Source: a virus
Lineage: Duplodnaviria > Heunggongvirae > Uroviricota > Caudoviricetes
Virus record (IMG/VR): IMGVR_UViG_2802429248_000011
Location: 1-19,329 of that record
DNA length: 19,329 nt
Reading direction: 5' to 3' (one strand)
Positions within the stretch are counted from its first letter, which is position 1. Every line of letters begins with the position of its first letter. A model generated the notes under the pieces. It saw only the letters and a list, made by a program, of their open reading frames with translations. It was not told where the DNA came from and searched no databases. The position numbers and the translations under genes are program-made. Positions 1 through 17,723 of this stretch are shown piece after piece.

Positions 1-462
1 ATCCCGTTTCAGGAAATCAACATGTCGGTTTTCCAGTTCCGGAAAACGCCGCTGTACCGAGAGAGGGATCCCGTCAAGAATACTGGCAATTTCACCTGCG
101 ATCCGTGACAGCACGAAAGTACAGAATGCGGTTTCCACCACTTCTGCGGAGTCTCTGGCATTCTTCAGCTCCTGGGCGTCAGCCTGCGCACGCGTAAGTC
201 GATGGCGTTCGTACTCAATAGTCCCAGGCTGGAGATCTGCCTCGCTGGCAGCCCTGTAATCCTCAACCTCTTTACGGAGTTTTTCATTTTCGATATCAGC
301 TTCCCTCTGCGCATACCACTGAATTGCCATGGCGGTATCAAATACAGATTCAACGCCCTTACCACCTCCGGAGACGCAAGGGAGTCCCTGAGACTGCCAG
401 CGTTCAATCGTTCGCGGATCCACGTTGAAAATTTCGGCAAGTTTCTTTTTATTAACCTTCAT
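1..462 (-). CDS. nu1: Terminase small subunit, lambda Nu1-like (3' end cut by window edge)
   Basis: Minus-strand ORF with ATG at 460-462 running off the window start. Translation begins [23 protein letters not shown] and continues ...[58 protein letters not shown]..., matching lambda Nu1 as I remember it. It lies directly beside a lambda-type cos site. Confidence 0.9.
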
Positions 463-638
463 GAAACAGTCTCACAATAAATACAGGGTCCGACATGAAA
501 GTGCCCGAAAATGACTTTTTTAGGCGTTTTCATGTCGGACCTTTTACGGATTCGATATTAGAAAAAACAGATAGTTATGTTCGAGAAGTACCGACATGAT
601 TTTCCCCGGAAAATTTTCATAAATAGCGAAAACCCGCG

Positions 639-650
639 AGGTCGCCGCCC
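639..650 (-). other. cosN cohesive-end sequence of a lambda-type cos site (cosB expected in 463-638, cosQ side in 651-700)
   Basis: Minus strand reads GGGCGGCGACCTCGCGGGTTTTCGCTATTTATGAAAATTTTCC, which matches the lambda left end as I recall it. The plus-strand flank CGTAACCTGTCGGATC..CCGGAAAGGACCCG resembles the lambda right end. Position between Rz and Nu1 is as expected for a prophage. Confidence 0.8.
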
Positions 651-922
651 CGTAACCTGTCGGATCGCCGGAAAGGACCCGCAGGCGTTCTGGTTTATTC
701 GCAATGAATTCAATATCTGACAGACCTGAATACACGTCCTGTTTCTTCCACCCCCGCACAGGACTGGCGAGCATGAGGGACAAACCCGCGCACCATAAAC
801 GCGGTAAAAACCCGGTGTGCATCGTTTTTGATTATTCCCGCACACTCACGCAGAAGGAATTCCCCGTCGGGCTACGGTCATGGTTAATGCGGGAATACAG
901 CGACGATACTGCGCATGATGTG

Positions 923-1472
923 TCAGACTTGAATACCCTTATCGAATCCCGGTAATAAAAACTGTCCCTGTCTCTCCAGGCGTTTCAGCTTTGCAAGCAA
1001 TTGAGGTTTTTTCGTTCTTCCCCAGCGATTGAGCAGCCGGCCAGACATACTGGCGACATCCTTCTCTTTCATATACTCCAGCATTATGGCGTTGCGTTCT
1101 GCTTCATAACTTTCGCTGTACTTACGGAGTTCTGCTGACATCCAGTTAAAGGCATTTATATAGGCCTCTTTAACGGCGTCGGCTTTTGCGCCATTAAATC
1201 CCATGACCAGCATAACGAAGCCACTAAAGTCCATGCGGTAGTAAATCTGTTTCTTGTCGAAAATCCCTAATTCATTGATTTTTTTCGGCAACGCAAAAAT
1301 GCGCGCTCCGGAAATCTTCAGAGCAATGACAATTTTTCAGCGCCCTCAATACGTCCGCGTGACGCTTACCAAAAGCCTTTGCGATCTGGAAGGTGTCAGT
1401 TACCGGTTGACCTTCTGCTGCGGTAACTAACTGGCGAAAGTCAAAGTCATGATTCACAATTAATTCATTCAT
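923..1472 (-). pseudogene. Rha-family phage regulatory protein (antirepressor-like), reading frame broken in an A7 homopolymer
   Basis: Two overlapping minus-strand ORFs (1272..1541 and 923..1291) together encode a Rha-like protein (N part ...QPVTDTFQIAKAFGKRHADVLRAL..., C part ...YYRMDFSGFVMLVMGFNGAKADAVKEAYINAFNWM...). The frames join if the A7 run (plus 1279-1285) is read as A6. Likely start is ATG at 1472 with an AGGTAA Shine-Dalgarno. Confidence 0.55.
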
Positions 1473-1623
1473 GGCGTTACCTGCTACTTCGAAATGAACC
1501 TTTGCCGCACAGGAAACCAGCCCACCGAGGCTCGCCAGCACTAACTGGTATCCTCAAAGGCCCATTCCAAAGGGTCAGGTTCGGTGGTTATTGTGCGCTG
1601 CGGTGCGCGGTGAAATACCTATA

Positions 1624-1652
1624 CAAAAACGCCCCGCATCTGCGAGGCATTT
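1624..1652 (-). terminator. Possible intrinsic terminator downstream of the lysis cassette
   Basis: Minus strand GCCTCGCAGATGCGGGGCGTTTTTG: imperfect GC-rich hairpin followed by a T5 run, just after the Rz stop. Confidence 0.3.
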
Positions 1653-1690
1653 TCCTGAAAGTCACTTGTTAAATTTCAGTGAAATTAAAA

Positions 1691-2140
1691 TTATTTTAAG
1701 CACTGCGTCCTAATGTACTCCTGCAAGTAGTTAACCTGCGCGGTTATCCTGTCGATTCCACTTCGGAGACGGTAATAATTGAGTTCAGCATCTGCTGTAA
1801 GTCTTGGGCTTTCTCCATCGCCCATGCCGCTGGCTCCGGTCTTTGACTTTGCACAGGAGGCGGCGACTTGCAGCCGCTTACGCCCAGCAGAAACATCATC
1901 ACGGAGACTTTCGATAGTCGCGTTAGCATCAGCAAGCTCCTTTGTATATCTGGCATCGAGTTCTGCTACATCACGTTGACGCTTCTGCATATCAGCGATG
2001 ATGGATGTGGCTTTATCGCGCTGGTCTTTGTAGGCGATGGCGTTATCACGGTAATGATTAACAGCCCATGACAGGCAGACGATGATGCAGATAACCAGAG
2101 CGGAGATAATCGCGGTTACTCTGTTCATTACTGACCCCAC
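1691..2140 (-). CDS. Rz: Rz inner-membrane spanin (i-spanin)
   Basis: 149-aa ORF with an N-terminal TM segment ([19 protein letters not shown]) and coiled-coil periplasmic domain, similar to lambda Rz as recalled. Overlaps the end of R and contains an embedded +1-frame lipoprotein ORF. Confidence 0.9.
1744..1929 (-). CDS. Rz1: Rz1 outer-membrane lipoprotein spanin (o-spanin), embedded in Rz; start codon uncertain
   Basis: ORF wholly inside Rz in another frame. Signal peptide with lipobox ...LLGVSGC followed by a proline-rich mature region ([17 protein letters not shown]...), the typical Rz1 architecture. Confidence 0.7.
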
Positions 2141-2622
2141 AAACAGATTTCACGCTCAATCTCACGACGAGTCATGAGACCTTTCCATTGCTTACCGCCA
2201 GCATATGTCCAGCGACGTAGCTGATCACATGCGCCTTTGATATCGCCCTGGTTTATTTTGCGAAGAAGCGTCGATGTTCTGAAATTGCCAGCACCCACGT
2301 TGTAAACGAATGAGTAAAGAGCGCCGCGCGTTGTTTCCGGTATATCGACTTTGATGTACGGGTTAATTTGTCTGGCGACAGTGGCAAGGTCTTTATTCAA
2401 GAGTGCTTTGCATTCTGCTTTGGTATACGTTTTACCGAGCATGATGTCTTTTCCTGTATGCCCGTGACATACAGTCCATACACCAACAATATCTTTGTAT
2501 GGTATGTAGCTGACACCTTCCAGACCATCGTTACCACTTGGGCCAGTGATTAACACTGATGCTATAGCAATTGCTCCGCCACCAATAGCAGCAACAACGG
2601 CTTTTCGTAATGATGGAGGCAT
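2128..2622 (-). CDS. R: SAR endolysin (phage 21 R-type lysozyme)
   Basis: 164 aa. N-terminal Gly/Ala-rich SAR segment ([20 protein letters not shown]) and the Glu35/Asp44/Thr50 catalytic positions (..[22 protein letters not shown]..). Near-identical to the phage 21 / DLP12 lysozyme as recalled. Confidence 0.92.
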
Positions 2623-2837
2623 TATTCACCTCTCGCAGCCTTACGCCTGTCTTCTTTAATCTTGAAATAAAGATTTGTCAGATACGTCAGCAGGCCAAAA
2701 ACCAGGCTACCCAGCACACCGATTGCAGCCCACTGTGACGGAGTTACTTTATCGAGTAACTGCAATGCCCAGAAACCAGCATTACCCGCCGATGTGCCAT
2801 AGGCAACACCTGTTGTTAACTTATCCATTGATTTCAT
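2622..2837 (-). CDS. S: Pinholin (phage 21 S-type holin) with dual-start motif
   Basis: 71 aa beginning [26 protein letters not shown]... with two TM segments. The Met1-Lys-Ser-Met4 dual start is typical of S21 antiholin/holin. Its stop overlaps the R start. Confidence 0.9.
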
Positions 2838-3056
2838 ATCCTCACCCCGATGTACACGGATGGTGCAATATGTTTGAAAATATCGGAGTCTACGGGGTAG
2901 TTTTTACAGCACACGTTGTTCTCAACGGCGCTAAAAAAACATACACATTAAAAATGTGGTTAATTATTTTGAAAGAAAATCATATATTAATTAATAATAC
3001 GAGAAATGTTTTCATATTTAGTGTACTGTATACGGCCATTTATACAGGAAAAGCCT

Positions 3057-3227
3057 ATGTCAGAACGTAAAGACTCAAAATCACGCCGTAATTATCTCGT
3101 TAAATGTTCCTGCCCAAACTGCACCCAAGAGTCAGAACACAGTTTTTCAAGAGTACAAAAAGGTGCCCTTTTGATCTGCCCTCATTGCAACAAAGTATTC
3201 CAGACAAATCTTAAAGCTGTAGCCTGA
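3057..3227 (+). CDS. Small zinc-ribbon protein (two CxxC pairs), moron gene
   Basis: 56-aa ORF MSERKDSKSRRNYLVKCSCPNCTQESEHSFSRVQKGALLICPHCNKVFQTNLKAVA. AGGAAA Shine-Dalgarno 6 nt upstream; TTGAAA / TAATAA promoter-like hexamers at 2969-2997. Confidence 0.6.
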   Translation: MSERKDSKSRRNYLVKCSCPNCTQESEHSFSRVQKGALLICPHCNKVFQTNLKAVA

Positions 3228-3286
3228 TTGATTTTATTCGCAACAAGTATTTTTTATATTTTAATAATATATTTAAAGCAGATAAT

Positions 3287-3309
3287 AAAAAACCCGCCTG
3301 AGCGGGTTT
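3287..3309 (-). terminator. Intrinsic terminator (strong on minus strand, weak on plus)
   Basis: AAAAAACCCGC-CTGA-GCGGGTTT hairpin. The minus strand has a T-run after the stem, so it would end the cspB-like transcript; the plus strand is followed by TAATATT. Confidence 0.55.
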
Positions 3310-3590
3310 AATATTGTGGTGCTTTTTGTGAGAGTCATCCACTTACGCACTTTGTTTTGCTATGCCAGCAGTTAGCTTCTGCTGTAAAACTATTCATGCA
3401 GCAAACCTGCACTTCACCACAATGGTTAGCATACTTTTCCTGATTAAGTTATTACCAAATATGCTGGCCATTGTTTCATGTATTGGACCGCCTTACTCTT
3501 TATTAAAGAGATCCAATATTCACCACTCTGTCTGTATCTCCACTCAGGCATCAGCCTTCTTCGTTATCGTATACAGACAAACTATGAATT

Positions 3591-3806
3591 TTAATCATTA
3601 ATGATGACATTTGCTGCTGCAGGACCTTTAGCACCACTCTCTACAGAGAAGGTAACCTTTTGACCTTCAAATAAGGTTCGATAATTATCATTCTGAATCG
3701 CAGAAAAATGCACAAACACATCTTTACTACCATCAACAGGAGAAATAAAGCCGAAACCTTTATCAGCGTTAAACCATTTTACTAAACCAGTCATTTTATT
3801 TGACAT
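3591..3806 (-). CDS. cspB: Cold-shock protein, CspA family (CspB-like)
   Basis: 71 aa [67 protein letters not shown]...; canonical cold-shock-domain RNP motifs; long upstream untranslated region as in csp genes. Confidence 0.9.
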
Positions 3807-4105
3807 TCTACATTCCTTAACTTGAGCCTTTCGGCATAAATGGTTTGTATAACAGAAACGACTTCGTACTTAATTGGAGAGACTCAAAGAAGGAATAAGT
3901 GAATAACACCTGAAATGAGAACTGCTTTAGTAAACTACTTCGTATATCGTCTGTTCTTCAAACCGACGCAATCATTAACGCATAGTTGAACATATGAAGC
4001 AATGTTTATTTTAGACATCCAGCCATCTTCAACCCCATCAAAAAACTATAGCTTTCTTCAGGAACGTGTGTATAGTGCGCCAAGTTATCAGTATTAAGGA
4101 ATTTT

Positions 4106-4318
4106 TTGTCCCGTAAAATGACAGGAATTGTCAAAACCTTTGACTACAAAAGCGGCAAAGGTCTTATCATACCATCCGATGGCCGTATCGATGTCCAGCT
4201 GCACGTTTCTGCTCTCAATCTCCGCGATGCAGAAGAAATTACCACAGGATTACGCGTGGAATTTTGCCGAATCAATGGTCTACGTGGACCTTCAGCTGCC
4301 AATGTTTATCTTTCATGA
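4106..4318 (+). CDS. cspF: Cold-shock-domain protein, CspF/CspH-like
   Basis: 70 aa [70 protein letters not shown]. Divergent from the cspB-like gene, as in the Qin prophage arrangement. First codon is TTG with AGGA upstream. Confidence 0.85.
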
Positions 4319-4372
4319 GCTATATTAAAGCTTTTACTTTAAGCCCCATCGGATCACACATGGAGAGTTTTT

Positions 4373-4462
4373 ATGAATAACCCCGTCTGCCTTGATGACT
4401 GGTTGATTGGCTTTAAAAGCTTATGCTGTACTTTGGCCGTAATAGCTCTGCTAATAATATAA
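4373..4462 (+). CDS. Putative 29-aa hydrophobic peptide (speculative small protein)
   Basis: GGAGAG Shine-Dalgarno 8 nt upstream of the ATG; encodes [29 protein letters not shown]. Lies between the cspF-like gene and its terminator. Confidence 0.25.
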
Positions 4463-4611
4463 TAAGCAGACTCATTGTGTTTAGGGACATTGTACTGGAA
4501 GAAAACATTTTAAACATCAGGCAAATAACTAAGTCACCAGCTAAATAATAAGTTAACAGACATGGGTCCCGGGATGAGGTTCAACATCACCATTGCCCCA
4601 TTTAAAGCACA

Positions 4612-4637
4612 AAACCCGCTCATCAGCGGGTTTTCTA
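4612..4637 (+). terminator. Intrinsic terminator, plus strand
   Basis: AAACCCGC-TCATCA-GCGGGTTT followed by TTCTAATTTCTTT. Confidence 0.6.
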
Positions 4638-5049
4638 ATTTCTTTCTAAACATCAGATATACAAAGCCCATCATTGAGGGAATCTTATCCATATTTTTTG
4701 AAAAATGCAAGCATCACGTTGCCATCTTCATTGAAAAACCTTTATCGTGTTACTTTTATCAATTGCACTTCAGCATAGAGTTATCCCAGGCAGCACTTTA
4801 AAGACTTCTACATTACACACACCTTGTCTCCCCTTCTCGTCATATCTGCAAGACCGATATGCATGACGCAGTACATACGCTGAACTGCTTTATCCATCAG
4901 CATATTCTAGTGCTAAAGCGACTTCAGTAGCAGAAGCAAAATTCTGCTACTGTGCCAAACAGGAGTAAACGTCATTTTATGTAATGTTGATTGAGTGGTC
5001 ATAGTATCACCTCAATAACAGCTCTTCGCCCTATCATTGAAAGCATATC

Positions 5050-5058
5050 TGCTATAAT
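5050..5058 (+). promoter_or_regulatory. Extended -10 promoter element (TGcTATAAT)
   Basis: TGCTATAAT lies about 32 nt upstream of the ATG at 5090; no good -35 hexamer, consistent with an extended -10 promoter. Confidence 0.35.
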
Positions 5059-5089
5059 TAAAAAGCCACTTAACATCAGGACTTCAAAC

Positions 5090-5275
5090 ATGACTTCAAA
5101 TCAATCTGAAAACGAAATAGTTAATACTGTCAAAAAATATGCATCATGTGCTGACGATGCTTTGCAGGCAGGCAAAGAAAACGTTAAAGATAAATTTAGA
5201 AATTATCCACTGACTAGCGTGGTGGTCGCTCTAAGCATAGGGTTAACGCTTGGTTTTATTATTGGCAGAAAATAA
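5090..5275 (+). CDS. Small C-tail-anchored membrane protein (ElaB/YqjD/DUF883-like)
   Basis: 61 aa MTSNQSENEIVNTVKKYASCADDALQAGKENVKDKFRNYPLTSVVVALSIGLTLGFIIGRK. AGGA Shine-Dalgarno 8 nt upstream; C-terminal TM anchor ending in basic residues as in the DUF883 family. Confidence 0.55.
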   Translation: MTSNQSENEIVNTVKKYASCADDALQAGKENVKDKFRNYPLTSVVVALSIGLTLGFIIGRK

Positions 5276-5338
5276 TCTTAAGCCTCCCATAAGTCGTACA
5301 CAATCACATCTACCAATTAATGTTCCATTAGTAAAAAA

Positions 5339-5357
5339 CCACCTCCTGTGGAGGTGG
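5339..5357 (-). terminator. Intrinsic terminator (strong on minus strand, weak on plus)
   Basis: CCACCTCC-TGT-GGAGGTGG: perfect 8-bp stem, A6 on the plus side upstream (T6 on the minus strand after the stem), TTT on the plus side. Confidence 0.5.
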
Positions 5358-6403
5358 TTTAAGGATAGCAACAAAACACAACCTACTTTAAACGGCTATA
5401 TTCTGCTATATCTAAATAATAGGTTCTCTTTTATCATCCGGTGAAAAAGGGTTCAATGGTTGCCCCTCATCAGGACGCTCAACGGGCTCATCATCAGGCT
5501 TACGGTCATCAAAATCTGGATGTTCTGACATATTCCACCCTAGTATTTTTATGCAGGAAAGATTATTTACTCTTTCCGGTTGTCTTTTTTATTATCCTTA
5601 CCCTTACTATCCTCATTGTTTTTATTCCTGTCATGAGATTTTTCATTTGAATCACTTACATATAATGTATTCATGGGGACTCCAGTTTTTTAACAGCACA
5701 ATGCTGTATCTGTAATTATAGATGCAATTAATCATTATGGTATGTATGTTTCATGCACAAATCAGAAACGCATCTAGTGCTTTAATTAATATGGATTTTA
5801 TTGCTGTAGATTTACAAAAATTTTCATAATTAACCAGCAATATAAGACAAATATCTCATAACATGAGGGAAATCAAGCTCATTTAAAGCAATTTATAATT
5901 TTCATCCTACTATTTTCCCTACACTGCCAACACCAGTTTCGTCGCAACACTCTGACAAGACACCTATAAAATCAGTTTCGTTATCACCTTAATTTTCTTC
6001 ATGGGTAACAAACCGGTAATACATCGATAGCCTGATTGATGCACGTTACTGTTACCTCTTCCCTGCATCAGGATGGCTTCCCAAGATGATATGGTTAATC
6101 ACACTGGAACATTCACGCATAACCGTTTCCTTCATATCCTGCCGTTTTAGCATGTCTTTTCCCCTTCTTGTTAATATCAATGACTAACACAAATCTAAAA
6201 AAGCCAGCAATGTAAAAAAACTGCATTCACGGCAACCAGAATGGTTACCGTTCTGCACAAAGTTTATGTCCACAAAAAAACCACTCTGCGCGGCTTATTG
6301 ATATTTTCCACCGGTATGCATATAAGGCTCATCATTGGAAAACTCTTTGCACGTTTCCTTAGAAAATACAATCGTTATGTCGCCATCGTTCGGTGAAAAT
6401 CTT

Positions 6404-7156
6404 TTATCTTGTCACTTTTCTCAGTTGTGCTTCTGCATACGCTTCTTCCTGCCAGCACTTTGTTACCAGTTTATCAATGACGTCCGCATACCCCTTGTAC
6501 CACTGATAATCTGTCAGGTCCGGTACCAACTTCTGGACATGACGTCGTGCCAGTGTGGTCGGTAAACGACTAAACCTGTTTCCATTACAACGCCCACAAA
6601 TCTTATAAACCGGTACGCCATGAAGCCGGGTTCTTTTTTCATCCAGGACAATACCTTTACCCTTACACCCTCTGCACGCTGTGCTGACTTCGCCCTTACC
6701 ATGGCAATGCTGACATAGTTCCTTCCCCCATTCTTCCTTGATAACAGATTCCCCACTTCTGTAGTGTTTCACCACTTCGCGCAATACATTATGAAATCCC
6801 GTACCTGCACAATGTTCACAGCGAGCCTTACTTGCCGCAGACCTGGAATAATCAGCAAAGGCAAAATTCACAAGGTAAGGGATGATCTGTAACCGGGTTT
6901 CTTCACTCAATTTGTTCAATATCGGGTTATCCAGTGCCATCGCGTAATTGAGCAGACCTTCAATCGCAAACTGAGGGTTCTGAACACCAACTTTTGCCAG
7001 AAATAAGGCAAACCCAAGCGGTGCTTTCGACTGCACCATCCCCTGCGCAGCCATCACATCCGTAATTGTTAAACCACCAGAGCCTGTCGCCGGTGCGTCA
7101 TCGCTCAGTTTTGGTGATTTCGGGGAGTAATATTTCGGTAAGACTTCAAGGTTCAT
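6404..7156 (-). CDS. Q: Late-gene antiterminator Q (lambda Q family)
   Basis: Translation from ATG 7156 (GGAGA Shine-Dalgarno) begins MNLEVLPKYYSPKSPKLSDDAPATGSGGLTITDVMAAQGMVQSK..., closely paralleling the lambda Q N-terminus as recalled. Cys-rich zinc-binding pairs (CEHCAGTG, CQHCHGKG, CRGCKGKG, CGRCNGN). Longest ORF is 6404..7198. Confidence 0.88.
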   Translation of the reverse strand: MNLEVLPKYYSPKSPKLSDDAPATGSGGLTITDVMAAQGMVQSKAPLGFALFLAKVGVQNPQFAIEGLLNYAMALDNPILNKLSEETRLQIIPYLVNFAFADYSRSAASKARCEHCAGTGFHNVLREVVKHYRSGESVIKEEWGKELCQHCHGKGEVSTACRGCKGKGIVLDEKRTRLHGVPVYKICGRCNGNRFSRLPTTLARRHVQKLVPDLTDYQWYKGYADVIDKLVTKCWQEEAYAEAQLRKVTR

Positions 7157-7169
7157 GCTCGTTCTCCAC

Positions 7170-8165
7170 TTACGCCAGCACGCCAATTGCCAGCGCACGA
7201 TCGATAAAACGAAATATCAGCTTCAGCTGGGAGCCATACTTCTCTTCAAATGCCACGGTATCCGCATGCAGCTCGTCGTGATGCTTTCTGCACAAAGGCA
7301 ACACAAAGAGGTCATGCGCTTTTGTAGCCATTCCACCCTGACCGTGGCCTATCAGGTGGTGGGGATCATCAGCAGGCTTTCCACAACATGCACACGGCTG
7401 TGTCTTAACCCAGCGCGTGTACTTTTCGTTAACCCAGCGGCGACGTTTGGGGCGTAACATAAAAGACTCCGGCGACTCCGGATCCACTTTCAGCGCCAGC
7501 ACCTTTTTCGCTTTATCCTGGATAATGCTGGTGGCAGGAACCGAAGGCACAAGGTCACTTTCCCGGGTGACAGACGGCACAACAGGCTTCGGTAATCTCA
7601 GTGCCTTACGGGCTGCACTTTCCGGTAAGGCATCCGCCAGGTCATTACGAATCAGCCACCAGCACAGTTCCGGCATTGTCACAACGTGACTATCATCAAA
7701 ACCGAGATCCCGACGCACAACAGACAACACCCAACGGGCACAGTTATCCGTTGCCATTGATTCCAGCCGTTCCGTGAACTGATCGCGCAGCTGGTTATCG
7801 CAGTGCCAGCACAGACGGATTGCGCCCGGGGCGTGTCGCATTGTGGTCATGTTCTCGCTGTGCCAGTCGGAATGAGGCCACTGGCAGCCCTTTTCACGAA
7901 GTAACCAGCTTTCAAGACATTCCACGCCACCAGCACGACGGATCACTGCCTCATTGCGGAACACGGCCCGAACGGCAGGATCATCCGCCAGCGGTTGTGA
8001 TGCCGCCGGAACGGCACCACTGGCGAAAGATGAATAACGCTCCGGCTCAGGCTCCAGCAGGACACGCCCCTGCATAAACAGGGGCATCAGCTCTGAACCT
8101 GGCCTGAACAATACGATCCCCATACGCGGGGCAATTTCAGGGGTCAGCAGTGCTCTCACGGTCAC
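7170..8165 (-). CDS. DUF968-like protein with C-terminal HNH/zinc-finger-like Cys/His motif; start codon uncertain
   Basis: 331-aa ORF. C-terminal ...TQPCACCGKPADDPHHLIGHGQGGMATKAHDLFVLPLCRKHHDELH... resembles the DUF968 family found just upstream of Q in E. coli lambdoid prophages (memory-based). Several candidate starts. Confidence 0.7.
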   Translation of the reverse strand: MTVRALLTPEIAPRMGIVLFRPGSELMPLFMQGRVLLEPEPERYSSFASGAVPAASQPLADDPAVRAVFRNEAVIRRAGGVECLESWLLREKGCQWPHSDWHSENMTTMRHAPGAIRLCWHCDNQLRDQFTERLESMATDNCARWVLSVVRRDLGFDDSHVVTMPELCWWLIRNDLADALPESAARKALRLPKPVVPSVTRESDLVPSVPATSIIQDKAKKVLALKVDPESPESFMLRPKRRRWVNEKYTRWVKTQPCACCGKPADDPHHLIGHGQGGMATKAHDLFVLPLCRKHHDELHADTVAFEEKYGSQLKLIFRFIDRALAIGVLA

Positions 8166-8211
8166 CTCAGCGAACGGTATTGCATGAACGCAGAAGAAAA
8201 AAATTCAGCCA

Positions 8212-8469
8212 TCACGCAGTAAACTCCTTCACCAGCGTTTCAAACTGGCTTACCTGGCCTTCCAGTTCCGCCACGCAATCCACCAGCTCATCCACCGCCT
8301 TTTGTGTGCGGTGTTTTGCCTGCAGCAGATCACGCAGCGCCGGAGTAAGCTGCTTGCAGAGCGTATCCTTTGCCACGCTCGTTTTTTCCATCTGTTCAGC
8401 ACAACGAAGCATCTCCTGTGCCTGCCGACGAAGTTGTTCCGGTGAAACAGTGGTTGTTCTGTTATTCAA
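8212..8469 (-). CDS. Hypothetical small coiled-coil protein (85 aa)
   Basis: ORF MNNRTTTVSPEQLRRQAQEMLRCAEQMEK... whose TTG start overlaps the DnaB-like stop (TTGA), suggesting translational coupling; no recognised family. Confidence 0.45.
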   Translation of the reverse strand: MNNRTTTVSPEQLRRQAQEMLRCAEQMEKTSVAKDTLCKQLTPALRDLLQAKHRTQKAVDELVDCVAELEGQVSQFETLVKEFTA

Positions 8470-9866
8470 AATAAACGCTCCGTTTTACTGCCCGACATGC
8501 GTTTATTGCTGTATCTGCGCGGATTGCCCGGAGTCATGGGTGTGGAAAGAACCCGGGCACTCTCCTGGTCCACAGGCAGAAAATGTCCGTTATAAAAACG
8601 CCGGTAAATCGTCCCCAGAGAACCGTTACGTTGTTTCGTGATATTGATTTCTGCGATGCCCCTGGCCTGCGTATCCGGGTTGTACACTTCATCCCTGTAA
8701 AGCATCAGAATGATGTCTGCATCCGCCTCTATTTCTCCGGAATTTTTCAGGTCCGAGTTCATGGGGCGTTTATTGGGTCTGGATTCCACGCCGCGGGAGA
8801 GCTGGCTAAGAGCAATCAGCGGAAAACCGCCGGATTTTGCCAGGCTTTTAAGTCCCTTTGAGATTTCCCCCACCGCAAGGTCGTGACGCCCCGTGCTGCG
8901 GGTTTTAATCAGGCCGAGGTAATCGACCACCACCAGCGCCGTTTCCGGGTGTTTCATCCGGTGGTGCTTCGTGGTTGCACATATCTCATCAATGGTCAGG
9001 TTTGCCTGGTCCACCATCCAGATATTACGCCCCGTCATTCGTCCCACGCCCTGCGAGAAACGCGCCCAGTCTTCATCTTCAAAACGGGCAACAGACTTAA
9101 GACGTGATACCGGCATTCCTCCAGCCGCAGACACCATACGTTCACCAATCTGGATGTTCGACATCTCCATGGTGAACAGAAGCACACCATGCCCCTGCTC
9201 AGTCACCTTGTCGATGATGTCCAGCGCAAGTTCGGTTTTCCCCATCGAAGGACGGGCGGCAATGAATACCAGGTCTCCGGGCTCCATACCGCCCGTTTTT
9301 GCGTCCAGTTCATCAATACCGGTCATCAGCGCCCTGGATTTCTCCAGTCCCTGATTGCGGCATTCAACACGGTCGACCACTTCCGGAAGGACATCATCAA
9401 TGTGAACCGGCTGAATGACGCCCTTTCCTGTCGACAGTGTGACCATCATGTTCTGCGCATCCTTCAGAGCATCCTCGGCTGCTTCACAGGTATGCGCATC
9501 ACGTAAATTCTGTAATGCTTCAGTCAGTGTTTTTTCTGCATCGCGCAGTGCGGCATTTCGCCGCAGCGCTGCAACATAGTGCTCCAGTGAAGACTTCACC
9601 CAGGTTTTACGCCCGGTGTCGGTAATCACCGGGGCAAGTTCCGGCATCTCATTGCACAGCAGCACGGGGTCAATGACGCCGGATACGCGAGCCTGTCTGC
9701 AAATCCCCGCGTAAATATCCCTGTACTGACGCACGAAAAAGACATCCGCCGGAAGCGTGGCCAGAATATCCATCACTTCCGGATCAGCCCCACGCAGAAA
9801 AAACGCGCCAATCACGGCACCTTCCAGGTCATCGTTACGCCATGCCGGATTTGTCGTTTTTGTCAT
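8466..9866 (-). CDS. Replicative DNA helicase, DnaB-like
   Basis: 466 aa from ATG 9866 (ATGA overlap with the upstream DnaC-like stop). Walker A ...FIAARPSMGKTELAL... and DnaB C-terminal RecA-like domain motifs. Confidence 0.9.
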   Translation of the reverse strand: MTKTTNPAWRNDDLEGAVIGAFFLRGADPEVMDILATLPADVFFVRQYRDIYAGICRQARVSGVIDPVLLCNEMPELAPVITDTGRKTWVKSSLEHYVAALRRNAALRDAEKTLTEALQNLRDAHTCEAAEDALKDAQNMMVTLSTGKGVIQPVHIDDVLPEVVDRVECRNQGLEKSRALMTGIDELDAKTGGMEPGDLVFIAARPSMGKTELALDIIDKVTEQGHGVLLFTMEMSNIQIGERMVSAAGGMPVSRLKSVARFEDEDWARFSQGVGRMTGRNIWMVDQANLTIDEICATTKHHRMKHPETALVVVDYLGLIKTRSTGRHDLAVGEISKGLKSLAKSGGFPLIALSQLSRGVESRPNKRPMNSDLKNSGEIEADADIILMLYRDEVYNPDTQARGIAEINITKQRNGSLGTIYRRFYNGHFLPVDQESARVLSTPMTPGNPRRYSNKRMSGSKTERLF

Positions 9867-10753
9867 GCTGCCACACCTCTGATATGCGCACGGTAGCTTT
9901 CCCAACCAAACACCAGGCAGTTACACCCACCATCAGTAACGCGATCCACAATCCGTTCACCAATGGATTCTTTAAGCTGTTCAAACGTCAGGTTGCTGAT
10001 CAAAATTGTCGGTAAAACGCTTTCGTAACGCGCATTTATGATTTCCTGCAGGATGGTTATCTCTGTAGGCGTGCCGAACTGCACACCAACCTCATCAATG
10101 ATCAGCAGGTTCAGTGAGGCGAAATGAGCGAGAACTTCATCCTCGGTACGCTCTGAATTGTGGCGCCAGGTATTTTTCACAGCGCGGGTCAGTCGCATAA
10201 CATCCGTAATTTCGACGGTCGCCTGGTGGTGGCGAATAATATTTTTTGCCATTGATACAGCCAGATGATTTTTCCCGGTACCACAATTGCCAATCATGAC
10301 CATGCTGGTACCCGCAGCAAGACACTTCTCCCATGAACCGGCATAGCGCCGACAAGCCTCAAGATTTCTCTGTGCGTCAGCATTCACCGCCTGATAATTC
10401 TCAAACTCGCAGTTCTGGAAGCGGCGGGCAATACCAGCCCTGTCGAGTAATTCATGAACTTTCAGGATGCGTAACGCCTCCTGTACCTGATCCAGCTCAT
10501 TCGCAATGCAGGTCGGGCAACCAGACACCCGTTTGATGGTTTCCCCACGAACATCTGGCCCTTTCAACACCAGACGTGTGTATTTCCCGTGTTTCTCACA
10601 CTCAGCAGTATCCTCGCTTGTCAGCCAGTGTTCACAGCGCCACGGACGCTTCCCGACACGGGCAAACTGCATCTCCTCCTCCAGTTCCGCCCTGCGGTTG
10701 AGCAATTGCGCTTTGTCGTGTTGTGCGTAGTGTTTTTTTAACTGTTCAAACAT
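9863..10753 (-). CDS. Helicase loader, DnaC/IstB-like AAA+ ATPase
   Basis: 296 aa. Walker A GNCGTGKNHLA and Walker B LLIIDEVG; GAGGTGA Shine-Dalgarno before ATG 10753. Confidence 0.88.
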   Translation of the reverse strand: MFEQLKKHYAQHDKAQLLNRRAELEEEMQFARVGKRPWRCEHWLTSEDTAECEKHGKYTRLVLKGPDVRGETIKRVSGCPTCIANELDQVQEALRILKVHELLDRAGIARRFQNCEFENYQAVNADAQRNLEACRRYAGSWEKCLAAGTSMVMIGNCGTGKNHLAVSMAKNIIRHHQATVEITDVMRLTRAVKNTWRHNSERTEDEVLAHFASLNLLIIDEVGVQFGTPTEITILQEIINARYESVLPTILISNLTFEQLKESIGERIVDRVTDGGCNCLVFGWESYRAHIRGVAA

Positions 10754-10772
10754 TGTTCATCACCTCGAAAAA

Positions 10773-11582
10773 TCACCAGTTGAAGTTCGTTGAACCGTAG
10801 TCCTGCTCACTGAATCCCGAGATCGGGAGGCCGGTAGTTCGCCCACCTCCGGGAGCGGCTGGCTGTTGCCAAGATTCCTCGAAGTGACGATCGGGTCCAA
10901 AGAACGTCGCAGCCTGCTTCACGAACTGTGTGCCGATATTTCCGGTAGCTCGTACCCAGGCGGCATACCGCTTCACGCCATCAAGCATGGTCTCCGGTTT
11001 TATTCCCTCCCTGATACGGGCTTTCCAGGCTTTGAAGGCTGCTGACTTGGAATTGCCACCGGCACGTTTGGGATATTCCTGCCAGGCCTGTTCAAATTCC
11101 GGTGAATATTCCTGTCGGGCAGAACGCGCTGGTGCAGACGCGTCAGCGGATGCGCCAATAGTTGATTCATTGACTGGTTCTTTGACTGGTTCAAAAGAGT
11201 GACTGGTTCTGGGTGAATCTCCTGCACTACCCCCTAGTGCAACTCCTGCACCACCTGGTGAATTTGTTGCACTAGGTAGTGAATTATTTGCACTACCACC
11301 TAGTGAATCTTTTGCACCATCAAGACGAAGAAGATAAATATTGCTCGAGTTGCCTTTTTCACCTTTCCGGGAAACTTTTTTTACCAGTCCCGATTCACAA
11401 AGAGCCGTAATATGATTCATCACAGAACGTTTGCTAATCTCGCACTGATCAGCAATATGCTGATAGCTGGGCCAGCACTCGCCCTGATCGCTGGCATTAT
11501 CAGCCAGCTTAATCAGAACCAGTTTTCGCAATGGATTCCCCACACGAATTTTCATCGCTTTAACCATCAGCTCCATGCTCAT
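10773..11582 (-). CDS. Replication initiator (lambda O-like; N-terminal winged-HTH, low-complexity linker, C-terminal domain)
   Basis: 269 aa. GGGAGG Shine-Dalgarno before ATG 11582. Direct repeats with internal dyad symmetry (iterons) lie in the linker-coding part of the gene, as in lambda O/ori. Confidence 0.8.
   Translation of the reverse strand: MSMELMVKAMKIRVGNPLRKLVLIKLADNASDQGECWPSYQHIADQCEISKRSVMNHITALCESGLVKKVSRKGEKGNSSNIYLLRLDGAKDSLGGSANNSLPSATNSPGGAGVALGGSAGDSPRTSHSFEPVKEPVNESTIGASADASAPARSARQEYSPEFEQAWQEYPKRAGGNSKSAAFKAWKARIREGIKPETMLDGVKRYAAWVRATGNIGTQFVKQAATFFGPDRHFEESWQQPAAPGGGRTTGLPISGFSEQDYGSTNFNW
11223..11310. repeat. Origin-of-replication iterons (four ~20-22 bp repeats with internal dyad symmetry) inside the initiator gene
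   Basis: TGCACTACCCCCTAGTGCAA / TGCACCACCTGGTGAATT / TGCACTAGGTAGTGAATT / TGCACTACCACCTAGTGAAT in tandem. Adjacent at 11165-11215 are three copies of TGACTGGTTC. Confidence 0.7.
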
Positions 11583-11803
11583 AGAGCACCTCCCAGGCGT
11601 TTAAACATTTTTCCGGACTGAAACGCCATCAACGGATAGCTAATGGTGTAGTTACGCCCCAGTAATTCACACACAACTTTCTGGCTTTCGGTGCTGACCA
11701 GGCAAACCCGCAGAACGTGACCGTTGCTGGTGGCGAACCACTGCCCCACACGGGGGCAACGGTTGTATCGGTGATACAGGGAATTAACGATGTAGCGGAT
11801 CAT
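11579..11803 (-). CDS. Hypothetical protein (74 aa)
   Basis: GGAGGTG Shine-Dalgarno; ATGA overlaps with both the upstream ORF and the initiator gene downstream; no recognised family. Confidence 0.55.
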   Translation of the reverse strand: MIRYIVNSLYHRYNRCPRVGQWFATSNGHVLRVCLVSTESQKVVCELLGRNYTISYPLMAFQSGKMFKRLGGAL

Positions 11804-11994
11804 GGACGCACCTCCGCCGTAGTTACGTATTTAACCGGGCTACCTTTCATTGAGATGGTTTCACACATCTCTGCCGCTTTCAGTTCCGCCGTTTTTCTGG
11901 ATTTATAGCGACGGTGCCAGACAGATACATCCGTGCGAACTGATACATCGTTTCTGTATTCCGTAGTGGAGATGATGATTTCGTAACTAATCAT
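11800..11994 (-). CDS. Hypothetical protein (64 aa)
   Basis: GGGAGG Shine-Dalgarno 7 nt before ATG 11994, which overlaps the upstream stop (ATGA); MISYEIIISTTEYRNDVSVRTDVSVWHRRYKSRKTAELKAAEM... Confidence 0.55.
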   Translation of the reverse strand: MISYEIIISTTEYRNDVSVRTDVSVWHRRYKSRKTAELKAAEMCETISMKGSPVKYVTTAEVRP

Positions 11995-12653
11995 GGGCGT
12001 ACCTCCCATTGATTACGGCGAAAAGCAGTGTGATTCAGGCTGGTTTCAGCCTCATGGAATGCTCCAATGCAGCTCTCGTAGTACCGCATTGTGCGTAGAC
12101 TTAACCCAAGCTGAAGCATCATCAGGCCATCAAGGGTGATGTAATAACCACGCAGGGAGTCACCATAGATGTGGTAAGTACCCGGTATGAAGTTGCGGGT
12201 AAAAAATTCGCGCGAGCAGTTCAGATACTCGATTTTGTCGACGATGTTCTGGTGCATGCGCTTAAAGTGGCAGGCAACATGCAGGGAGAAAATAACAGCT
12301 TTGCCGTTGACGACTTCGATTTTGAGGAATGGGGAAGTTGGGACTGTAGCCATGATGGCAGCCTCCTTGATCGGTGAAAAACTTCCACCACCGGAGCTGC
12401 GAAACTCATGGGTGGTGAACTGAACAGGGTTCGCAGTACCGGCGATCAAGGAAACCGGCGAGCCTTTCGGCTCCCCTGCCCAGCCCACCATAATTCTGGC
12501 GTGCGTGAGCGCAGACGATAAAAAAGACGCTGGCGCGTCGTATATCGCCTTGATCAATTCCGGGCTGCGACCCCCGGCACCCGCTTTATAAGGTGCTGGA
12601 ACAGTGTAACGTCCCGAAATTACAGAATCAATATTTTGGCTTGAAACATTCAT
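11991..12653 (-). CDS. Hypothetical protein with Gly/Ser/Pro/Ala-rich N-terminal region and folded C-terminal domain; start codon uncertain (open frame extends to 12887; strong internal Shine-Dalgarno + ATG at 12353)
   Basis: 897-nt open frame. The first in-frame ATG (12653) lacks a Shine-Dalgarno; an internal ATG at 12353 has AAGGAGG 8 nt upstream. C-terminal domain ...YYITLDGLMMLQLGLSLRTMRYYESCIGAF... is not confidently assignable. Confidence 0.5.
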   Translation of the reverse strand: MNVSSQNIDSVISGRYTVPAPYKAGAGGRSPELIKAIYDAPASFLSSALTHARIMVGWAGEPKGSPVSLIAGTANPVQFTTHEFRSSGGGSFSPIKEAAIMATVPTSPFLKIEVVNGKAVIFSLHVACHFKRMHQNIVDKIEYLNCSREFFTRNFIPGTYHIYGDSLRGYYITLDGLMMLQLGLSLRTMRYYESCIGAFHEAETSLNHTAFRRNQWEVRP

Positions 12654-12677
12654 ATGCTTACTGGTATTTTTACTAAC

Positions 12678-12767
12678 GCAAATGTTCTTGGATGTTACTG
12701 GCTTACTTCTTTGTGAGGTTGCCTTTACTAACGTTGAGCGAGCCGGGTCACTACCCGGCTTTTTTTC
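12678..12767 (+). ncRNA. Candidate oop-like antisense small RNA (about 90 nt)
   Basis: Promoter-like TTGAAA (12641-12646), 18-bp spacer, TG-extended -10 TGgTATTTT (12662-12670), and a strong plus-strand terminator ending at 12767. Antisense to the Rha-2 stop and the region upstream of the next gene. Confidence 0.3.
12741..12767 (+). terminator. Intrinsic terminator oriented against the pR-type operon (antisense terminator)
   Basis: Plus strand AGCCGGGT-CACT-ACCCGGCT followed by T7; on the minus strand the hairpin is preceded by A7 and has no U-tract. Confidence 0.6.
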
Positions 12768-13473
12768 ACCGCTGCCAACCAATAACCTGAAATAACCCCA
12801 TTTTCGGGTGATACCAGCGAGTCCCTCGCGGTTCTGCTTCCGCCATAACCTGATGGAAAGCAGCCATAAACGGTTCCACGGCAACAATTGCGCGACGTGA
12901 CAACAATCCGTCCGGCGTCATGAACTCATGGGTGTCTGTAGGAATTTGATAAGCGTTCACCAGATTGCGGCATTTATCATCTGACAAACCGGTTTTCGCT
13001 TTCAGTTGGCGATATCCGGCATAGCCCTCACGAATGTTGCCCTTTTTGATTTGCTCAACTGTTTCGGCAACGTGGCTGACTTTTTCTTCCACCTGAGTGA
13101 TCCGTTTCTGCTGACGAACAGCTTCAAGAGCCATCGCGGCAACCATTTCGATTTCGCTCATTGGCTTACGGATCTGTTCTTCCAGTTCGCGCCAGCGATC
13201 TACTAGGCGGGCTGTGAATTCGGGACAAAGCTGTGCGACGACAATGATGCTGTCGCGCTTACCTTGTTCGCCTTCGAAGATGTAAGCACCTACATTTCGT
13301 TTTAATCCTAAGTTGTTGATTATTTCGAAATTCGCCATTGGCGCACTTCGAATAATCCCCTTATCCATGAGCCTTTCAATGCTGCGCTTAACATCTTTGT
13401 GTTGGCTGCCCACCAACTCTGCGATTTCAAGGCTGGTCATGGATGCTTTGCCGTTAAAAATTGCGGTGTTCAT
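12766..13473 (-). CDS. Rha-family phage regulatory protein (antirepressor-like)
   Basis: 235 aa. N-terminal ...MTSLEIAELVGSQHKDVKRSIERLMDKG... fits the Rha domain pattern; its ATG overlaps the cro-like stop (ATGA). Confidence 0.78.
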   Translation of the reverse strand: MNTAIFNGKASMTSLEIAELVGSQHKDVKRSIERLMDKGIIRSAPMANFEIINNLGLKRNVGAYIFEGEQGKRDSIIVVAQLCPEFTARLVDRWRELEEQIRKPMSEIEMVAAMALEAVRQQKRITQVEEKVSHVAETVEQIKKGNIREGYAGYRQLKAKTGLSDDKCRNLVNAYQIPTDTHEFMTPDGLLSRRAIVAVEPFMAAFHQVMAEAEPRGTRWYHPKMGLFQVIGWQR

Positions 13474-13733
13474 TGTTGGTCTCCTGTGGGCTTGTCATCC
13501 TCTGTGTGCGCTAAGCTTGGATGTGGAAAAAGCTCTGGTAGGTCTGGACGAAATTCATACGCTTGGATCTTTCCGTCGACAGCTGCAACCAATAACGGCA
13601 CAAATTCTGGTGAAATCTTGTTCTTGCAGTTCAACCAATCGCAGACTGTTGACTGGGCCTTTCCGCATCGCTTGGCTAAGGCTTGCTGACTTCCAAGAAT
13701 CTCAATAGCTTTCTCTATGGCTTTATGTTTCAT
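13470..13733 (-). CDS. cro: Cro-like repressor (Cro/YdaS-family HTH)
   Basis: 87 aa from ATG 13733 (GGAG Shine-Dalgarno): MKHKAIEKAIEILGSQQALAKRCGKAQSTVCDWLNCKNKISPEFVPLLVAAVDG.... Divergent from the CI gene. Longest ORF extends to 13784. Confidence 0.8.
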   Translation of the reverse strand: MKHKAIEKAIEILGSQQALAKRCGKAQSTVCDWLNCKNKISPEFVPLLVAAVDGKIQAYEFRPDLPELFPHPSLAHTEDDKPTGDQQ

Positions 13734-13755
13734 AATCGCATCTCCTATTGAACGC

Positions 13756-13784
13756 ATAATAACAACAGGAAAAGCGATATTCAA
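13756..13784 (-). promoter_or_regulatory. pR-type promoter for the cro-like operon
   Basis: On the minus strand, TTGAAT (-35), a 17-bp spacer and TATTAT (-10), about 20 nt upstream of the cro-like Shine-Dalgarno. Confidence 0.5.
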
Positions 13785-13803
13785 CGTTAAACCTAGAACA
13801 TTT

Positions 13804-13817
13804 ATCGGAAAGCCGAT
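13804..13817. promoter_or_regulatory. Palindromic operator candidate in oR (ATCGGAAAGCCGAT); a weaker related site at 13765-13778
   Basis: 14-bp dyad matching two sites beside the pL-type promoter (ATCGATAAACCGAT, ATCGGTAAACCTAT); located between divergent cI and cro start regions. Confidence 0.45.
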
Positions 13818-13852
13818 AGACTAGCCAAGATAGAGAGGGGAGGAAAATCGCA

Positions 13853-14545
13853 ATGACATTTTCAGAACGACTTGATTTAGCTATGCGCAACGCAAAATTT
13901 ACGCAAGGTAGGCTGGCCAAAGAAGTGGGTATGGCTCAGTCCAGTGTCAATCAACTACTTAACAAAGCCAACGGTTCCAGAAAAACAGTCGAAATAGCAA
14001 AAGTTTTGGGCGTTAACCCGGAATGGCTCGCATCGGGTGTTGGCCCAATGGAAATCGTGACCTCTGCAGACTCACACCAAATACGTAACATTTCTGAAGA
14101 TTGGGTTACTGATTCGTATGTCGTGGATGTTTTAGACATCAGATATAGTTGCGGACCTGGCAGTTATAACTCTGATTTTCCTGACATTGTCAGATCTATA
14201 GCGATAGAACCAGGATACGCATCAAGAGTTTTTGGCGGCAGACCAGCATCAGCAATCAAAGCAATAAACGCCCACGGCGACAGTATGAAAGGCACAATAG
14301 ACCCTGAAGACTTGGTATTTGTAGATGTATCAGTTCGCACATTTAATGGTGATGGTATATACGCCTTTACATACTCTGGAACATCGCACATCAAAAGACT
14401 TCAAAAAATCAAAGATACTCTAACGGTGATATCTGACAACCCAGCTTACAAGGATTGGGCTATCGAACCGGAAGACTTTGAACAACTTCACATTGACGGA
14501 AAAGTAATTGTCAGTTGGCCTATGACACTACACCGTTTTGCATAA
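13853..14545 (+). CDS. cI: CI-type prophage repressor (N-terminal HTH, C-terminal LexA-like S24 autopeptidase domain)
   Basis: 230 aa. N-terminal HTH (..QGRLAKEVGMAQSSVNQLL..) and C-terminal S24 motifs (..HGDSMKGTIDPEDLVFVD.. and ..IKRLQK..). GGAGG Shine-Dalgarno; divergent from cro. Confidence 0.9.
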   Translation: MTFSERLDLAMRNAKFTQGRLAKEVGMAQSSVNQLLNKANGSRKTVEIAKVLGVNPEWLASGVGPMEIVTSADSHQIRNISEDWVTDSYVVDVLDIRYSCGPGSYNSDFPDIVRSIAIEPGYASRVFGGRPASAIKAINAHGDSMKGTIDPEDLVFVDVSVRTFNGDGIYAFTYSGTSHIKRLQKIKDTLTVISDNPAYKDWAIEPEDFEQLHIDGKVIVSWPMTLHRFA

Positions 14546-14563
14546 GCAAAAATCATTTAACCC

Positions 14564-14589
14564 GCCCACTCTTAAGTGGGCTTTTTTTT
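14564..14589 (+). terminator. Intrinsic terminator after the repressor gene
   Basis: GCCCACT-CTTA-AGTGGGC followed by T8. Confidence 0.75.
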
Positions 14590-14596
14590 GGAAAAA

Positions 14597-14638
14597 ATCG
14601 ATAAACCGATTGACAGGCGAAATCGGTAAACCTATTAT
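14597..14638 (+). promoter_or_regulatory. pL-type early-left promoter with two operator dyads
   Basis: Consensus TTGACA (14610-14615), 17-bp spacer, TATTAT (14633-14638). Dyads ATCGATAAACCGAT (14597-14610) and ATCGGTAAACCTAT (14622-14635) overlap the -35 and the spacer/-10. Confidence 0.6.
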
Positions 14639-14687
14639 TATGGCATAGGTATCGAACTCACCAAAGCAATTATAGAGGATGAGAAAA

Positions 14688-15185: not shown

Positions 15186-15313
15186 CATAATCACCGCTTC
15201 GCCCCTCAAGGTACATGCGAACATTTTTATCAATCATTGCGGAAACAGTCTCAATATGAAAACACTTCTGAGACTCGCTATATAGCAGAACATATAAGTC
15301 AGCTGAGGAAGCC

Positions 15314-15679: not shown

Positions 15680-15875
15680 CAATAAATATTCCCTGAATGT
15701 TTATTACGGTTTTATCGCCGGGGATTGTTGCAACCTTTATTCGCAGGTGATTATGTTATGACTTTCCTGAAACATAAGGCATCGTATAAAACTGCCTGCC
15801 TCATTGTACAACATGGAGATTCTTATCTTCATATAGCCAACCTGTATTTGCGCAAAGCATATGGGAGATAAGTCA

Positions 15876-16642: not shown

Positions 16643-16644
16643 AC

Positions 16645-17291: not shown

Positions 17292-17322
17292 AGTTCTCAC
17301 AACTCAGGGAGCAGGAGAAAAA

Positions 17323-17565: not shown

Positions 17566-17568
17566 AGA

Positions 17569-17715: not shown

Positions 17716-17723
17716 GGTAATGC

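Follow-up and report, generated by a model that had tools for sequence, protein, structure and literature searches.

Where does late transcription start in a lambdoid prophage whose antiterminator gene Q is held apart from the lysis genes by a long tract of AT-rich DNA, and what does that tract carry? The question is posed by a stretch of 19,329 nucleotides of viral DNA (Caudoviricetes; positions 1 to 19,329 of IMG/VR record IMGVR_UViG_2802429248_000011), the whole of which is called the window here, and whose late strand is the minus strand. Positions 2838–6403 form the exact interval between Q, which ends at 6404 (−), and a P21-type holin gene, which starts at 2837 (−). This 3.57-kb island has a GC content of 0.374, compared with 0.481 in 1–2837 and 0.520 in 6404–12000, and accepted genes cover about 25% of it. 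It is the slot in which a lambdoid prophage of the Qin/SfV type carries its cargo (‘moron’) genes, between Q and the lysis cassette. Within it lie two copies of a lambda-type late-promoter module, a degenerate one beside Q and an intact one about 1.7 kb further downstream, and the second is probably the working late promoter.

A preliminary description of this DNA had drawn the boundaries of the AT-rich island exactly, and had listed divergent cold-shock genes, a zinc-ribbon gene and a tail-anchored open reading frame (ORF), all of which are present (cspB/cspF, ynfU and an ORF of 61 amino acids). It had treated the island as a single unit, served by a Q-dependent late promoter near 6400. Part of that interpretation holds: it was right about the slot and about antitermination being needed, the placement of the promoter is probably wrong, and the island is composite, consisting of a K-12 Qin segment and a 1.5-kb recombination scar.

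Two late-promoter modules

The elements on which the argument turns are as follows.

6404–7156, minus strand: antiterminator Q, 250 amino acids from ATG (PF03589 Antiterm, E=9e-54)
6331–6371, minus strand: module A, a degenerate homologue of the lambda-type promoter PR′, 32 nt past the Q stop codon
6274–6296, minus strand: terminator tR′-A, a hairpin of 7 bp (−7.8 kcal/mol, the weakest of the set) followed by U7
4670–4710, minus strand: module B, an intact lambda-type cassette of PR′, Q-binding element and pause element, predicted late start about 4675
4611–4634, both strands: terminator tR′-B, a 10-bp GC-rich bidirectional hairpin (−16 kcal/mol on the late strand, −14 on the plus strand)
2622–2837, minus strand: class II (P21 S-type) holin, the first late gene (PF04971, E=4e-34)

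Q binds an element embedded in PR′ and is loaded onto RNA polymerase paused at a sigma-dependent pause element (PMC9388147). It acts in trans, and the Q-loaded polymerase is processive over kilobases and ignores terminators (PMC9388147). The Q of the window is matched by phmmer to the lambda Q structures 7UBM/4MO1 (E=1.6e-37, the 7UBM match extending over both halves). It is 97% identical to SfV Q, 94% to K-12 YdfT/QuuQ and 42% to lambda Q, relative to which it has an extra 47-residue DnaJ-type zinc-finger insert.

Q relatives were retrieved from one genome per species, which gave 17 loci (Q 39–97% identical) from Escherichia, Shigella, Kosakonia, Mangrovibacter, Phytobacter, Atlantibacter, Scandinavium, Buttiauxella and Entomohabitans. 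Thirteen of the Q-downstream regions were aligned with those of SfV and lambda and with both modules of the window. The lambda region Q–PR′–qut–tR′, whose Q belongs to the same family, can be aligned base for base through the −35 element, 17-bp spacer, TAnnnT −10 element, AACGAT-type pause element and terminator; the alignment places the promoter and pause elements onto both modules, each of which is followed after about 40 nt by a hairpin terminator. The parts of the two modules read as follows.

Module A: −35 TTGTAT (6371–6366), 17-bp spacer TTTCTAAGGAAACGTGC, ‘−10’ AAAGAG (6348–6343), pause element AATGAT (6336–6331)
Module B: −35 TTGCAT (4710–4705), spacer TTTTCAAAAAATATGGA, −10 TAAGAT (4687–4682), sigma-dependent pause element AATGAT (4675–4670)

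The 16 other modules in the alignment all combine a 17-bp spacer with a TAnnnT −10 element and an AAYGAT pause element. Module A alone carries AAAGAG, and so lacks both T−12 and T−7; it has also lost the spacer motif TTCAAAAA...TG that all modules with a Q of at least 64% identity have in common. The pause pattern A-A-n-G-A-T is invariant (17/17 sequences). When the window was searched with the consensus pattern, only 4666–4710 was hit (0 mismatches, 0 hits expected by chance): the Q-adjacent site fails the lambda-type promoter pattern, and the complete copy lies 1.66 kb downstream, at 4710–4682.

The conservation of the core, taken from the −35 through the pause element, separates the two modules further. 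Core identity to SfV is 95% for K-12, 88% for module B, 85% for Kosakonia and 78% for Mangrovibacter, and the flanks of these presumably functional modules fall to 48–66%, so that the core is their best-conserved segment. Module A is 74% identical to its SfV orthologue in the core and 73% in the post-terminator flank; because the core has diverged as far as that flank, the comparison suggests that module A is under relaxed constraint. Fourteen IMG/VR contigs contain the exact A core, and a B core follows 1,661–1,693 bp downstream in 11/11 of those that extend far enough. The B core alone, 35 nt after Q, occurs in more than 100 IMG/VR contigs. The SfV Q, 97% identical to that of the window, has a single module, which is of the B type. 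A limited literature search found studies of the general Q mechanism and genome-wide studies of cspB and cspF, with no description of a Qin late promoter or of a two-module variant; within that search, a duplicated late module with one decayed copy is an undescribed, if minor, structural variant.

Where late transcription would start

Because module A is degenerate and module B is consensus-perfect (4710–4670), we place the late start about 1.7 kb downstream of the position near 6400 proposed in the preliminary description. Module B is probably the working late promoter, with initiation at about 4675 and Q-dependent read-through to the holin; module A would have drifted at a neutral rate, whilst in module B all the conserved elements are kept. 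Once the prophage is induced, Q expressed from 6404–7156 would act in trans at module B, loading onto RNA polymerase paused at AATGAT (about +1 to +6 from a start near 4675). Without Q, the transcript would end at tR′-B (4634–4611) to give an RNA of about 65 nt. With Q, the polymerase would pass tR′-B, run antisense through ynfS and cspF and then in the sense direction through the cspB unit, and continue across the cspB/ynfU terminator (3309–3287) and antisense to ynfU as far as the holin at 2837. Since Q would load at module B, the genes of the 1.5-kb insert (the gene for the 61-residue protein and two tiny ORFs) would lie upstream of the late start and be expressed, if at all, on their own. 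Which module fires, the read-through and the expression of the cargo genes are what we infer from the sequence.

The preliminary description had claimed at least three intrinsic terminators in the path of late transcription. Terminator-like sites are indeed over-represented in the island (9, against 2.8 ± 1.5 in shuffled sequences), and four solid hairpins face the late strand, at 6296–6274, 5360–5333, 4634–4611 and 3309–3287, the last two being bidirectional. Besides tR′-A and tR′-B these are:

5333–5360, minus strand: strong terminator AAACCACCUCC-ACA-GGAGGUGGUUUUUU (−17.3 kcal/mol, z = −3.85)
3287–3309, both strands: terminator serving cspB on the late strand (−15.5 kcal/mol, U6) and ynfU on the plus strand

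The two tR′ hairpins occupy the position of the terminator annotated in SfV. A transcript begun at module A would stop at tR′-A after about 65 nt; tR′-B would end the PR′ RNA of about 65 nt and, on the opposite strand, the cspF–ynfS transcript. The cspB terminator region was considered as a third PR′ remnant and rejected, the similarity being limited to the palindromic hairpin. The need for antitermination thus stands, although the distance to be read would probably be about 1.8 kb with two strong terminators, not 3.5 kb with four.

The lysis genes appear to be reachable only by transcription that ignores terminators, as had been supposed, since no convincing promoter was found close to the holin: sigma-70-like hits number 13 against 13.9 expected, and nothing upstream of the holin is conserved. 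The only match for a dedicated promoter, TTAATA-16-AATAAT (2990–2963), was discarded because such matches occur at chance frequency in AT-rich DNA, and no other feature of the sequence stands out. The same two-module arrangement is found in the phages PhiR63_1 and HannyBb, which would support read-through, but only indirectly.

The position of module A argues for a different start. It lies 32 nt past the Q stop codon, the position that the single module occupies in SfV, K-12 and more than 100 viral contigs, and it keeps AATGAT, the 17-bp spacer, TG at −15/−14 and the hairpin with U7. If module A were the main late promoter, with a start near 6336, the Q-modified polymerase would have to read 3.5 kb through four terminators and module B. 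We consider this unlikely. The −10 sequence AAAGAG lacks the T−12 and T−7 that are invariant elsewhere (16/16), the spacer motif is gone, the core has diverged like neutral flank (74% versus 73%) where functional cores retain 78–95% even across genera, and module A is not found without module B in any of the 11 informative contigs.

A compromise, in which both modules fire (A as the minor and B as the major start) or act redundantly, so that the duplication is functionally neutral, has in its favour that pause element and terminator are kept in both and that Q works in trans and processively over kilobases (PMC9388147). However, the promoter defects of module A speak against it, and we see no sign of selection maintaining that module; we regard this reading as improbable.

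Several observations weigh against module B as the late start. The sample in which A never occurs without B consists of near-identical E. coli sequences and may reflect a single lineage. Module A could retain a weak activity usable by Q, because its pause element, TG, U7 terminator and canonical position are all kept. The discriminator of module B, TCCCTC, differs from that of most relatives, and its pause element is AATGAT rather than AACGAT, although AATGAT is present in two other natural modules. At the nucleotide level, the Q-binding spacer of module B is putative for this Q subtype. The SfV Q, 97% identical to that of the window, has a single module, which is of the B type.

Finally, the prophage may be inactive, because K-12 Qin is itself a cryptic prophage. 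Taken to its limit, this would mean that there is no late transcription, and that the island consists of domesticated, host-regulated genes amid decaying phage regulatory DNA. The annotation of K-12 Qin as cryptic is consistent with such a state, as are the pseudogene fragments in the window and the truncated Rha-like ORF that follows Rz. Against it, the window has intact ORFs for Q, the holin, the endolysin, Rz, the repressor and the replication genes, module B is an exact consensus match, and the island is carried by two phages whose genomes were deposited as complete, with an E. coli host named for each. We judge complete silence to be very improbable.

A more speculative role for the tandem modules can be set beside the favoured reading of a working module B. 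Rather than debris, they might constitutively supply the lysogen with regulatory small RNAs (sRNAs) of about 65 nt from B and perhaps from A, whilst late transcription silences cspF, ynfS and ynfU in antisense and co-induces CspB. Such RNAs would have counterparts in the lambda 6S RNA and in the PR′ sRNA StxS of Shiga toxin (Stx) phages; the lambda 6S RNA is 194 nt long, as against the roughly 65 nt predicted for the terminated RNA of the window. If this were true, the RNA from module B would share its terminator hairpin convergently with the cspF–ynfS transcript, and co-induction of the RNA chaperone CspB would aid late gene expression. We think the odds are long against it. Rfam gave no known sRNA family for the PR′ transcripts or for the AT-rich segment 5700–6050. 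This segment is the most AT-rich part of the window (31–36% GC); it has no ORF of at least 40 amino acids and no Rfam match, and its similarity is confined to 40 E. coli genomes and two phages.

With module B as the probable late promoter, the functional start in this Qin/SfV-type subgroup should be sought 1.7 kb downstream of Q and not next to it. The placement decides which cargo is predicted to be co-induced with lysis, here cspB only. With an intact and a decayed copy side by side, the locus would provide a natural read-out of the positions that are selected in a lambda-type late promoter, and PhiR63_1 and HannyBb are tractable systems in which to address the module question.

A composite island and its cargo

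Comparison with complete E. coli genomes (megablast) and their RefSeq annotation identifies the region as the Qin interval ydfT(quuQ)–cspF–cspB–ynfU–essQ. The resemblance to Qin suggested earlier is borne out in that 2621–4799 is 95.8% identical over 2,180 bp to essQ–ynfU–cspB–cspF–ynfS of K-12, with order and strands alike. The genes of this block are:

3057–3227, plus strand: ynfU, zinc-ribbon small protein of 56 amino acids (PF23499, 2.5e-31)
3526–3967, minus strand: cspB transcription unit, comprising the 5′ untranslated region (5′UTR) and the coding sequence (3591–3806), in late-gene orientation
4106–4318, plus strand: cspF, cold-shock-domain protein of the CspF/CspH subfamily (NF012007, 157.2 bits, cut-off 111)
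4373–4462, plus strand: ynfS, small protein of 29 amino acids (PF23697)

The coding sequence of cspB matches NCBIfam NF007679 with 143.2 bits (cut-off 130), and its 5′UTR is a full-length match (3967–3526) to the Rfam cspA thermoregulator RF01766 with 157.9 bits (threshold 78). On the 5′ side of cspF, which is divergent from cspB, the Rfam match to a cspA-type UTR is insignificant (12.6 bits). Cold induction is established for cspB of K-12, whose cspF is not known to be cold-induced. The genes of 2838–4799 would be self-contained units of host type that bring their own regulatory regions and terminator hairpins and need no phage function for expression in the lysogen; cspB has a cspA-like, cold-responsive 5′UTR. 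For this moron-like character the terminators are clear, whilst sigma-70-like matches occur at chance frequency and the promoters are inferred from homology of the cspA-type UTR. The genes cspF and ynfS, ynfU and the 61-residue ORF all run antisense to late transcription, which leaves cspB as the one gene that would be transcribed together with the late genes.

In K-12, the spacing from Q to essQ is 1.9 kb, relative to which 4800–6319 (1.52 kb) is extra. This insert stretches the distance from ynfS to the Q stop codon to 1,941 bp, against about 280 bp in the Qin-type form. Among 5,426 complete E. coli genomes, 40 have the long form that bears it. The phages PhiR63_1 (host field ECOR13) and HannyBb have it too; both were deposited as complete genomes, and their records name an E. 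coli host. Other phages of the PhiR series have been used as plaque-forming temperate phages, the panel being credited to Brenes & Laub 2025 (PMC13190303). The insert is represented only by near-identical E. coli copies, which bears on any reading of covariation or of the ratio of non-synonymous to synonymous substitution (dN/dS).

The insert carries the scars of its origin. The K-12 locus 6407–6547, comprising the 3′ end of Q and 83 bp downstream, aligns twice with the window, at 4659–4799 and at 6320–6460, and a repeat finder reports a direct repeat of 73 nt (4727–4799 and 6389–6461, 75% identical, 1,662 bp apart). Three gene remnants accompany it:

4820–5002, minus strand: pseudogene of a Rha-family regulator, reduced to its N-terminal 61 codons and interrupted by two in-frame stops (E=7e-8)
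4745–4798, minus strand: dead second Q 3′ end, the last 18 codons (KCCLG*LYAEVQLIKVTR versus KCWQEEAYAEAQLRKVTR)
6052–6180, minus strand: truncated remnant of an SfV orf47-like gene, in which only the N-terminus MLKRQDMKET is conserved (8/11 residues)

The Rha pseudogene is 79% identical in nucleotide sequence to the Rha gene of PhiR26_1. Directly downstream of it, the Q remnant at 4745–4798 forms one arm of the 73-nt repeat. An orf47-like gene follows tR′ in SfV and in many other phages. The simplest history would be that two lambdoid genomes recombined, one contributing Q–PR′/tR′–orf47′–small ORFs–61-residue gene and the other Rha′–Q 3′ end–PR′/tR′–cspF and onward, and that a later deletion removed the DNA between a point inside Rha and a point close to the end of the second Q. 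The outcome would be two tandem late-promoter modules.

The insert also carries a gene for a small membrane protein:

5090–5275, plus strand: tail-anchored membrane protein of 61 amino acids (phrog_11629, E=5e-46)

This ORF belongs to a genuine small gene family; its relatives are 36–50% identical and have 16 invariant positions in common. Membership of the DUF883/ElaB-YqjD-YgaM group was considered and rejected, there being no Pfam hit at E<0.1. Remote relatives of the protein score 12–17 bits against a DUF883_C cut-off of 27, and its own resemblance to DUF883_C is weak and limited to the C-terminal glycine-zipper anchor. For one remote relative the genomic context consists of a 1.8-kb contig only and is uninformative. 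The top match to the protein, P0003, has 3,151 amino acids and 26 matched stretches in a patchwork of unrelated Pfam fragments, which suggests that it is no true relative and that its repeats are artificial or misassembled.

Two further ORFs lie on the late strand:

5412–5674, minus strand: two tiny hydrophilic ORFs of 35 amino acids (5674–5567) and 39 amino acids (5531–5412), each with a Shine-Dalgarno sequence

The first is rich in Lys, Asn and Asp, and the second is acidic and rich in Pro. A perfect TATAAT (5719–5714) precedes them, the terminator of −17.3 kcal/mol follows, and both are called in the annotations of PhiR63_1 and HannyBb. The ORFs of 35, 39 and 42 amino acids had no match in Pfam, NCBIfam, PHROGs or PADLOC. 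It is possible that 5333–5719 (−) is an autonomous small transcription unit on the late strand, with putative ORFs.

No toxin or defence-system match was obtained in the island. PADLOC returned nothing beyond a general likeness to cold-shock domains (CSD_V), and Rfam matched the cspB UTR alone, whether run at gathering thresholds or with permissive E-values. ARAGORN found no tRNA genes in the whole window. The island is an ordinary, largely annotated cold-shock cargo region of a Qin-type E. coli prophage, toxin-free, and not a hidden toxin or defence locus. Its core is already annotated in K-12, and morons in the slot between Q and S are textbook knowledge.

Related slots and the remainder of the window

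The closest known system is K-12 Qin from quuQ(ydfT) to essQ (b1559–b1556), with the same gene order and orientation. Its late-promoter core is that of module B (TTGCAT-17-TAAAAT/TAAGAT, then AAYGAT). K-12 has one module directly after Q and an interval of 1.9 kb, whereas the window has 3.57 kb, the 1.52-kb insert and a second, degenerate module; the Rha′ and Q′ scars and the gene for the 61-residue membrane protein are found in the window only. Lambda has 676 bp from Q to S and a single module, unlike the window with its duplicated module and zinc-finger insert in Q. In SfV (Q–terminator–orf47–orf48–S) the single module is orthologous to module A with its flank, and the annotated terminator is at the same place. 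The SfV module, however, is intact (TAAGAT, AACGAT), and its cargo, orf47 and the 350-residue orf48, lies in late orientation.

The preliminary description had likened the island to the slot that holds toxin genes in Stx phages. The slot is the same: in phages of the 933W/H-19B type, stx and nanS-p lie between Q and S, downstream of PR′/tR′, and depend on Q read-through. The likeness ends there, as toxin, tRNA and esterase genes are absent from the window, and most of its cargo is antisense to late transcription with terminators of its own.

As in Stx-phage slots, tRNA genes lie beyond the Q stop codon in three loci with a more distant Q, about 150 bp away in L148 and L149 and about 1.7 kb away in L150. 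Both L148 and L150 carry tRNA-Met(CAT) and tRNA-Arg(TCT/TCG), and L149 carries tRNA-Arg(TCT) only. One promoter architecture thus serves cargo of very different kinds. Among the loci compared, JAGZPX010000007.1 (L136), labelled as a metagenome-assembled genome of Veillonella parvula, has a Qin Q gene of the E. coli/E. ruysiae type with its late promoter, identical to locus L135 over the stretch compared, and is probably a binning contamination.

A survey of 65 viral contigs with an identical B-type core and a downstream holin gave promoter-to-holin slots of 0.63 to 4.5 kb, filled most often (45/65) by the csp block. Other fillings, as judged by eye from their sequences, include an orf47-like gene with a 350-residue, DPPY-motif methyltransferase-like ORF, a 141-residue lipoprotein-like ORF and a 616-residue NanS-p-like esterase ORF, all in late orientation. 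A 143-residue ORF, also in late orientation, was found as a further filling. The slot is thus a known variable cargo site, in which a csp filling stands out only because the majority of its genes run against the late transcript.

Beyond the holin, the lysis cassette is completed by two genes:

2128–2622, minus strand: SAR-type endolysin (lysozyme), overlapping the holin stop codon
1691–2140, minus strand: Rz spanin

A sharp mosaic joint lies at 2621, on the boundary between holin and endolysin: homology to Qin (K-12 and strain 2022H047) begins exactly there, and to its left the SAR-type lysozyme replaces ydfR and rrrQ of Qin. Downstream of Rz, a 122-residue Rha-like anti-repressor ORF (923–1291, minus strand) matches profile positions 63–177 of 268 and appears truncated; it is the second Rha-family remnant in the window besides that at 4820–5002. 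What remains of the window is the early region of a lambdoid phage, with a CI-like repressor, antirepressors, replication genes of the O/DnaC/DnaB type and DUF968. Within it, at 12408–12596 (−), Rfam identifies a C4 antisense RNA (85 bits) beside isrK (57.6 bits), overlapping two mutually overlapping antirepressor/Rha-like ORFs (11991–12887 and 12766–13473), an arrangement that looks like P1/P7-style antisense control of an antirepressor, here inside a lambdoid prophage.

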